From: an uncultured bacterium
GTDB lineage: Bacteria > Babelota > Babeliae > Babelales > Babelaceae
Assembly (NCBI GenBank): GCA_963717435.1
Contig: OY970332.1
Location: 1,089,903 to 1,153,902, forward strand
Reading direction: 5' to 3'
Length of the DNA: 64,000 bases
Part shown: positions 55,467 through 57,292 of the stretch, one piece after another
How the letters are laid out: the number at the start of each line of letters is the position of its first letter
Numbering within the stretch: position 1 is the stretch's first letter
The notes under the pieces: generated by a model
Database searches by the model: none
What the model saw: only the letters and a program-made list of their open reading frames with translations
What the model was told of the DNA's origin: nothing
Translations under genes and position numbers: made by a program

Positions 55467-57292
55467 ATGGACCTAAAAAAAATAGATTTAAAGAATTTTA
55501 CGCCTGAGCAGATTAGAAACTTTTCTGTAATAGCACATATAGATCATGGCAAGTCAACCCTGTGCGATAGACTTCTAGAAGTTACCGGAACCATTTCAGA
55601 ACGAGAACAAAAAAGAACAGTTTCTTGATAAACTCCAAGTTGAAAGAGAACGCGGCATTACCGTAAAGGCCCAAACCGCTTCGATGTTTTATGAATATAA
55701 GGGCCAAACTTATCTATTAAACTTAATCGATACCCCAGGCCACGTAGATTTCAGTTATGAAGTATCAAGATCTCTATACGCCTGCCAAGGTGCAGTTACT
55801 GTTAGTCGACGCATGCCAGGGCGTGCAAGCCCAAACAATGGCAAATTTTTATTTAGCATTCGATCAAGATCTTATCCATTATCCCAGTTATTAATAAAAT
55901 AGATATGGCGGCGGCAGACATGACCGCGTATCTAAAGAAATGTAAGATCTTTTTGATTTCAAAAAAGAAGAAATTATTAAAGCATCTGCAAAAGCGGGTA
56001 TCGGGATTCATGAAATTTTAGCAGGCTATAATTGAGCGAATACCTGCGCCCAAAAGTGATCCTAATGGCAAACTTAAAGCATTACTATTTGACTCGTGGT
56101 TTGACGAATATAAAGGCGTAGTATGTTTAATAGCGCTAAAAATGGCGGCATCAAAAAAGGTGATAATATTACATTGGCCCAGGCGCAAAGAAGTACGAAG
56201 TATTAGAGATGGGTCTAATGTACCCGGACCAAACGCCACGTGACGCACTTTATGCAGGGCAAGTTGGTTATCTTGTTGCAGGCATGAAAACTGTGCAAGA
56301 AGCCCGTGTCGGTGACACCATATATCATCAGAGACAGGCGGTAACACCATTTCCTGGGTTTAAGCCAGCCAAGCCGATGGTCTTTGCCGGTATATATCCA
56401 GTTGAAAGCGAAGATTTTGATGTATTAAGAGATGCCATAGAAAAACTTACACTTAATGACGCCAGTGTAAAAGTTGAAAAGAAAACCTCTGCTGCATTGG
56501 GGCTTGGGTTCAGATGTGGATTTTTAGGGCTTTTACACATGGACGTTTTTAAGCAAAGACTTGAGCAAGAATATGGGCTATCAGTTATTATTACGGCTCC
56601 GAGCGTACTTTATAAAGTTAAACTTGAACTATACAGGTGAAACAGTTGATATTGAAAACCCATCAGATTTTCCTGAGCTTCAAAAAATTGACGAAGTTTT
56701 GGAACCGATAATCGATGCGACTATATTATTGCCCACAAAATATTTGGGGCCGGTTATTAGCACTTTGCCAAGAAAAACGTGGAATTCAACAAGAGCTTAC
56801 ATATCTTAATGAAGACAGAGTAATATTAAAATATAGATTGCCACTTAATGAAGTTGCCACAGATTTTTATGATCAATTAAAATCGTTGACTTCAGGGTAC
56901 GCGAGCTTAGATTATGAAGAAGCTGGCTATCAAGCTGCAAATTTGGTCAAAATGGATATATTGCTTAATGGCAAAGCCGTTGATGCACTTTCAACAATTG
57001 TCCATGAAGATAACGCTCAAAGTATTGGAAAGCAAATTGCGCTTAAATTAAGACAAGTTATCCCGCGACAGATGTTTGAAGTTGCAATTCAAGCGGCGAT
57101 TGGTGCAAAAGTTATTGCAAGAGAACGATATCAGCATTAAGAAAGAATGTAACTGCAAAATGTTACGGTGGTGATATTACACGAAAACGTAAATTGTTAG
57201 AAAAACAAAAAGAGGGTAAGAAAAAAATGAAGCAAGTTGGTAACGTTGAGGTCCCTCAAGAAGCTTTCTTAACAATTTTAAAGAAGGATTAA
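55467..57292 (+). pseudogene. lepA: Elongation factor 4 (LepA) pseudogene: full length, about ten frame switches plus an in-frame TAA
   Basis: LepA sequence is recognisable end to end but in alternating frames. Segments include [46 protein letters not shown]...[106 protein letters not shown]...[15 protein letters not shown] and [44 protein letters not shown]. There is an in-frame TAA at 55943-55945. Confidence 0.85.

Follow-up and report, generated by a model that had tools for sequence, protein, structure and literature searches.

Frame shifts in the deposited lepA gene of an uncultured Babelaceae bacterium very probably reflect a local consensus or assembly error

Background

Pseudogenes do accumulate in the reduced genomes of intracellular bacteria, and those of Mycobacterium leprae, Rickettsia and Sodalis include full-length relics that carry frame shifts and a stop codon between intact neighbours. 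Both lepA and tig are dispensable in laboratory bacteria. Frame-shifted housekeeping genes also occur in the reduced, A+T-rich genomes of insect endosymbionts such as Buchnera and Blochmannia, where they are rescued by transcriptional slippage, and the lineage splitting of Hodgkinia in cicadas serves as a model for complementation between co-resident lineages. The described classes of error in long-read metagenome assemblies include frameshifts and stretches of kilobase size that lack read support (PMC13087279).

In this article, we examine the lepA (EF4) gene in a window of 64,000 nucleotides (the whole stretch of DNA that was analysed) from contig OY970332.1 of assembly GCA_963717435.1, an uncultured bacterium of the Babelaceae. 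The locus shares with the M. leprae, Rickettsia and Sodalis pseudogenes the full-length relic, the shifts, the stop and the intact neighbours, but differs from them in that 1) lepA shows no signature of relaxed selection and has an intact allele in identical flanks and 2) essential single-copy genes of the source genome are hit alike, exclusively by indels of 1 bp. The source genome resembles those of Buchnera and Blochmannia in being reduced, A+T-rich and equipped with frame-shifted housekeeping genes; unlike the slippage sites of those endosymbionts, however, its lesions do not alter the length of long A or T runs, and they shift the frame both ways and involve all four bases. With the errors of long-read or hybrid assemblies the lepA block has in common the one-base indels that break open reading frames of well-conserved genes, the local, kilobase-scale extent within an otherwise accurate contig, and the disappearance of the lesions in an independent assembly of the same strain. 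It departs from the usual assembly-error block in two respects, namely that the blocks of the source genome lie almost exactly within single conserved genes and that the lepA block carries about 5% of mostly synonymous, consensus-leaning substitutions. We conclude from contig-level evidence in one other sequencing run that the deposited lepA is very probably a block of local consensus or assembly error and not the gene of the organism.

The lepA gene as deposited

The source genome is a single contig of 1,198,203 bases with 34.6% G+C, and a protein search places the nearest relatives of its LepA in metagenome-assembled genomes of the Dependentiae (TM6) labelled Vermiphilaceae and Babeliaceae. 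The locus and its neighbours are laid out as follows, where L161 denotes the independent contig described in the next section:

54575..55273, reverse strand: upstream neighbour, 232 aa, intact, 100% identical to L161
55467..57292, forward strand: lepA (EF4) coding region as deposited, with 10 net one-base shifts, 3 frames and one in-frame TAA
57295..58368, forward strand: downstream neighbour, 357 aa, intact, starting 2 nt past the end of lepA, 100% identical to L161

Stop-to-stop open reading frames yield LepA pieces of 61, 107, 48, 29, 73, 157, 93, 142 and 70 residues, which lie between 55443 and 57292 and occupy each of the three forward frames. A profile of 12 LepA orthologs from related genomes was aligned to the window DNA with a frameshift-aware dynamic programme; the alignment runs from an ATG start at 55467 to 57289, covers profile positions 1-606 and spans 608 codons. 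It contains 10 frame switches, i.e., six extra bases (near 55605, 55795, 55871, 56021, 56623 and 56762) and four missing bases (near 55920, 56142, 56192 and 57126). The preliminary description of the locus had reported about ten frame switches, an in-frame TAA and about 608 codons, all of which are reproduced by the open reading frames and the profile alignment. Its statement that the conserved LepA blocks are unspoiled holds as well: the frameshift-aware alignment contains both the C-terminal domain of LepA and the GTPase motifs in colinear order, with the motifs intact, and the domains PF00009, PF03144, PF00679 and PF06421 were found on a near-identical intact LepA protein (P0001).

Against the NCBIfam TIGR01393 cut-off of 533.9 bits, the best single piece of the deposited gene scores 192.5 and falls below, whereas the L161 allele scores 913.4 and lies above. 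Judged by homology and synteny the locus is lepA, and its deposited sequence lacks coding in one frame. A search of the genome found no second copy of lepA; the other matches are paralogs of the typA, fusA, tuf and IF-2 type, all of them intact. The gene lies in one open frame above the TIGR01393 cut-off in 19 of 21 related genomes.

An intact allele in an independent contig

A search with the read-through LepA protein retrieved an intact protein of 607 residues, 96% identical, from the Logan assembly of run ERR10755947. It is encoded on L161, a 19.4-kb contig that is syntenic with the window and has the same genes at the same lengths. The alignment of L161 with the genome, 19,151 bases long, contains 115 mismatches and 32 gaps, and all 115 mismatches and 31 of the 32 indels are confined to two blocks, one in lepA (87 mismatches, 12 indels) and one at tig (28 mismatches, 19 indels). 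Outside tig and lepA all genes and spacers of L161 are 100.00% identical to the genome, bar one intergenic indel, and both genes are uninterrupted in L161 (lepA with 607 aa and 913 bits against TIGR01393, tig with 451 aa). Via other window proteins, two more contigs of the same run were reached, of 2,437 and 5,629 bases, and both match the window with 100% identity. Altogether about 24 kb of flanking sequence is free of substitutions, compared to 87 in lepA.

Since L161 is independent, read-derived sequence with identical flanks and an uninterrupted gene, the same strain carries an intact lepA. The preliminary description had named reads supporting one continuous open reading frame as the observation that would speak against a broken gene, and such a frame is what L161 provides, at contig level and from one other run. 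At that level the disruption is not reproduced in independent sequence of the same strain, which would be expected of a pseudogene, and the lesions are absent from it, as expected of an error block. In a collection of 15 billion proteins the broken lepA fragments were found only on the 1,198,203-base contig itself. The organism itself almost certainly has a normal, intact lepA and tig. Of the explanations offered earlier, a localised assembly or basecalling error gains support from the intact L161 allele in identical flanks, while a joint decay of lepA and tig as non-essential factors finds no support, both genes being intact in this independent contig.

Some further observations were made in the course of these comparisons. 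At window position 54165 there is an intergenic one-base deletion relative to L161. The three contigs, which cover about 27 kb, differ from the window nowhere else but in tig and lepA, and this deletion fits a low background of residual indel errors. Run SRR28413664 contains a sister organism whose LepA is 88% identical and whose lepA has a different upstream neighbourhood (rpmH-rnpA-yidD); close uncultured relatives of the lineage are therefore present in public data. A repeat of ~70 nt, 94-97% identical, is found at the 3' end of a gene at window 45370-45444, which corresponds to positions 2363-2437 of the short-read contig L164, and that contig ends in the repeat; it also occurs in at least four other places of the genome, among them 291218, 810334, 44326 and 1119468, and is probably a member of the window's family of GC-rich miniature inverted repeats.

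Individual lesions and the possibility of rescue

Comparison at base level with the near-identical intact copy in L161 allowed the lesion positions to be refined. The features are listed below together with the comparison by which each was placed:

55501..57196, no strand assigned: block of differences between lepA and L161, 87 substitutions and 12 one-base indels, mean spacing 17 nt, CV 1.09
55608, forward strand: extra C interrupting an A-run (comparison with L161)
55721..55725, forward strand: compensating pair, one base missing and one extra, 4 nt apart, no net frame change (comparison with L161)
55796, forward strand: extra base, a T adjoining T (profile alignment and L161)
55874, forward strand: extra base (profile alignment and L161)
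55921..55922, forward strand: one base missing (profile alignment and L161)
55943..55945, forward strand: in-frame TAA, a Tyr codon in the L161 copy, the third position alone differing
56020, forward strand: extra base (profile alignment and L161)
56141..56142, forward strand: one base (G) missing, adjoining AAAA, length of the A-run unchanged (L161)
56193..56194, forward strand: one base (C) missing after AAGAAG (L161)
56627, forward strand: extra base and two adjoining substitutions (L161)
56757, forward strand: extra base (L161)
57124..57125, forward strand: one base missing (L161)

The differences are spread evenly over the block, and the sequence directly outside it is 100% identical to L161. 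The A at the third position of the TAA codon is carried by 10 of 20 relatives. Three lesions had been described as single-base changes in A-runs, a description that does not survive the base-level comparison: an additional C sits within an A-run at 55608, a G is lacking at 56141 and a C at 56193. When a homopolymer is taken as a long run of A or T (about 9 or more), none of the 12 lepA indels is a change of run length.

These details bear on the idea that the frame shifts are real and are bridged by transcriptional slippage, programmed ribosomal frameshifting or RNA editing, such that full-length LepA is made. The idea would account for the full length and the near-perfect motifs that are kept despite 10 shifts, and essential genes with the same lesions (see below) would need rescue if the lesions were real. 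In addition, several extra-base sites read C-TT-A/G, reminiscent of +1 slip sites; the Ty1-type +1 slip sites are of the CUU-to-UUA kind. However, the absence of run-length changes among the 12 indels contradicts slippage at poly(A) tracts, which had been proposed earlier as a partial rescue, and the extra and missing bases are of all four kinds, stand in varied contexts and follow no single rule. With respect to programmed frameshifting, the shift sites are not conserved in orthologs, as L161 and 19 of 21 related genomes have the gene in a single frame; the one other split copy, in relative G002, is shifted at two sites only. The uninterrupted lepA of the same strain in L161 makes rescue unnecessary, and we regard rescue at the level of expression as exceedingly unlikely. 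Two specific signals were considered and rejected. Enrichment of C-TT-(A/G) as a +1 slip signal or quadruplet codon is at odds with the varied extra bases of lepA (C, T, A, A, A, T), the missing-base events without a common context and the in-frame gene of the same strain. Insertion and deletion editing of the U type is ruled out, as each of the four nucleotides occurs among the bases gained or lost.

Substitutions in the lepA block

The 87 substitutions in lepA are distributed over codon positions 1, 2 and 3 as 15, 11 and 61. Synonymous changes make up 64 of the 87 (74%), compared to 22% expected at random (p = 1e-24). When the majority base of 20 Dependentiae relatives is taken at each of these 87 sites, it agrees with the window in 52 cases and with L161 in 17 (p = 3e-5), and the read-through LepA translation is nearer than the intact allele to 18 of the 20 relatives. 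The lepA substitutions that distinguish the window are thus shaped by selection and directed toward the family consensus, which is the opposite of random decay. The "little visible substitutional decay" of the preliminary description is only apparent, given 87 differences (4.8%) from the intact allele of the same strain, most of them synonymous.

A genuine pseudogene would arise if lepA (and tig) had been truly and very recently inactivated under an indel-rich mutation spectrum, with L161 representing another strain in which both are intact. The dispensability of the two genes in laboratory bacteria, the confinement of the lesions to genes with intact flanking genes, and the tendency of reduced intracellular genomes to gather pseudogenes all favour such a loss. 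The base-level data do not. Zero flank substitutions in about 24 kb against 87 in lepA would require hypermutation targeted to the gene, all indels are exactly 1 bp, stops are few, and the relaxed selection expected of a pseudogene is not seen in the lepA substitutions (64 of 87 synonymous; polarity 52:17 toward the family consensus), a pattern opposite to neutral decay from the strain's allele. Moreover, single-copy groEL, rpoB, gyrA, secA, leuS and rpoD are hit alike and cannot all be dead. Recent loss under an indel-biased spectrum, another of the explanations put forward initially, is contradicted by the synonymous excess of 74%, the polarity toward the consensus and the lesions in essential single-copy genes; we consider a true pseudogene quite unlikely.

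The mostly synonymous, consensus-leaning lepA substitutions of ~5% point to mixing with another allele and not to pure read noise. No donor of the window-specific lepA bases was found among the 20 relatives or by exact 41-mer scans of genome and metagenome collections. Homologous recombination with a diverged relative might also have brought in the blocks as real imports, in which the indels alone would be uncorrected long-read errors and the polishing reads would come from a strain with the other allele. Uniform, mostly synonymous divergence of about 5% in tracts of 1.2-2.6 kb against an identical background is indeed the classical footprint of recombination. Nevertheless, such an import is very unlikely: a donor was found neither among the 20 relatives nor in the two public collections, and the TAA codon and the random-looking substitutions of tig (10 of 28 synonymous) resemble noise more than a functional allele. 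Under an import the frame shifts would still be artefacts, which makes it a variant of the error-block explanation and not a true rival.

The tig block

The second block covers tig:

48145..49393, no strand assigned: block covering tig, 28 substitutions and 19 one-base indels relative to L161

The gene itself lies at window 48190-49498 and is an intact open reading frame of 451 aa in L161. The tig substitutions, with 10 of 28 synonymous, are nearer to random than those of lepA, and the indels are denser than in lepA. The block opens upstream of the tig start codon, where the T-loop of tRNA-Leu(TAG) (48078-48162) contains the first difference. As this places its start within a tRNA gene, selection on a single coding sequence does not set the limits of the blocks.

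Genome-wide census of one-base indel clusters

The census compared the open reading frames of a whole relative genome (G012, the closest available, LepA 79% identical) with the source genome, and suspects were realigned in a frameshift-aware manner. A match was obtained for 557 genes, of which 429 are clean orthologs in a single frame. Gene names were taken from NCBIfam matches to the G012 orthologs, except that the GspE/PilB-like ATPase was named by reading its sequence. The affected genes have a common lesion pattern, in which numerous one-base indels go together with few stops and a high amino-acid identity:

groEL: 9 shifts, 84% identity
rpoD: 5 shifts
GspE/PilB-like ATPase: 10 shifts
leuS: 16 shifts
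secA: 13 shifts
nusG: 6 shifts
rplK: 4 shifts
rplL: 1 shift
rpoB: 4 shifts
uvrA: 31 shifts, no stop
gyrA: 19 shifts
ileS: 10 shifts
tig: 7 shifts
lepA: 10 shifts

The clusters outside tig and lepA, all of them in single-copy genes, lie in the genome at about 176.5-177.7, 288.4-289.6, 297.8-299.2, 387.8-390.0 and 532.5-534.2 kb, and further at about 726.0-726.6, 728.3-730.5, 873.5-875.8, 999.1-1001.7 and 1085.8-1087.9 kb. In genome coordinates the tig block corresponds to 1138047-1139295 and the lepA block to 1145403-1147098. The blocks number about 13 and occupy about 2% of the genome, and a sporadic background of single shifts affects about 8 genes elsewhere among the 557 compared. Roughly 170 indels were recorded in the census, each of exactly 1 bp and with few in-frame stops; the extra and missing bases are of all four kinds and occur in varied contexts.

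In a genome with pseudogenes the lesions would be restricted to dispensable genes, and here they also affect single-copy groEL, rpoB, gyrA, secA, leuS, ileS, rpoD, nusG and rplK; no second copies of the essential genes that are hit were found in the genome. Because GroEL, RpoB, GyrA, SecA, LeuRS and sigma-70 cannot all be lost, either the organism does not have the lesions or they are corrected downstream. The lesions could also be genomic and belong to a defective sub-lineage that is complemented by a co-resident intact lineage, as in the model furnished by Hodgkinia, or corrected by a mechanism at the RNA level, an arrangement that we hold to be extremely improbable. The error-block explanation appears to extend beyond the window, as suggested by the lesion pattern and by the essentiality of the genes. 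No near-identical intact groEL or secA was found in public data, where the best matches to the read-through GroEL and SecA are 89% and 70% identical.

The blocks fall within single genes and have intact neighbours a few bases away. Many long genes of equal conservation are clean, including typA (77.5% identity), fusA, rpoC (75%) and tuf, and the poorly conserved tig (44%) is hit hardest. Cross-mapping driven by conservation was consequently rejected as a sufficient rule for which genes are hit, since typA, fusA and rpoC are clean and tig is not.

A separate observation concerns the relative G002 (same family, 1.42 Mb, one contig), in which lepA is split by two missing-base shifts and fusA and tuf are fragmented; probably, this too is a noisy long-read assembly. 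Of its two lepA shifts, one is 1 residue away from a shift in the window's lepA, for which the probability by chance is about 17% (a rough estimate). Shared recoding was rejected as an explanation of the split gene in G002, as it has two missing-base shifts only, the proximity fits chance, and fusA and tuf are split as well.

How the blocks may have arisen

The assembly is most likely a long-read or hybrid assembly of a member of the Dependentiae in which about 13 blocks of 1.2-2.6 kb would have been built from poor or mixed evidence, the rest being mostly base-perfect. Several causes could be envisaged: 1) a few noisy long reads, 2) a long-read consensus left unpolished where the accurate short reads carried a diverged allele, and 3) reads of related organisms piled onto conserved genes. 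Inside such a block one-base indels would stay and the base calls would partly be those of another allele. The second and third routes both fit, because both would leave one-base indels together with partly foreign, selection-shaped base calls. It is this software or coverage step behind the blocks that we infer, as distinct from the lesions, the intact allele, the substitution bias and the damage to essential genes, which are observed. A few loose ends speak against the error-block explanation: the neat fit of the blocks within single genes is unexpected for random low-coverage blocks, conservation fails to predict which genes are hit, and no donor sequence was found.

Conclusions

The frame-shifted lepA is not a real biological feature, and the readings as gene decay or recoding are rejected. 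The data thus hold no evidence that this organism has lost translation factors, that its mutations are biased toward indels or that it recodes its genes. The significance of the finding is one of data quality, in that the genome represents its species in the reference collection that was searched and marker genes are corrupted in about 13 blocks, among them the widely used lepA, tig, secA, leuS, ileS, gyrA, rpoB, nusG and rplK. The blocks probably contribute to the low completeness estimate of 88.8%. Blocks of this kind can distort marker-gene phylogenies, pseudogene counts and metabolic reconstructions, and they are a source of false findings of "decaying genes".
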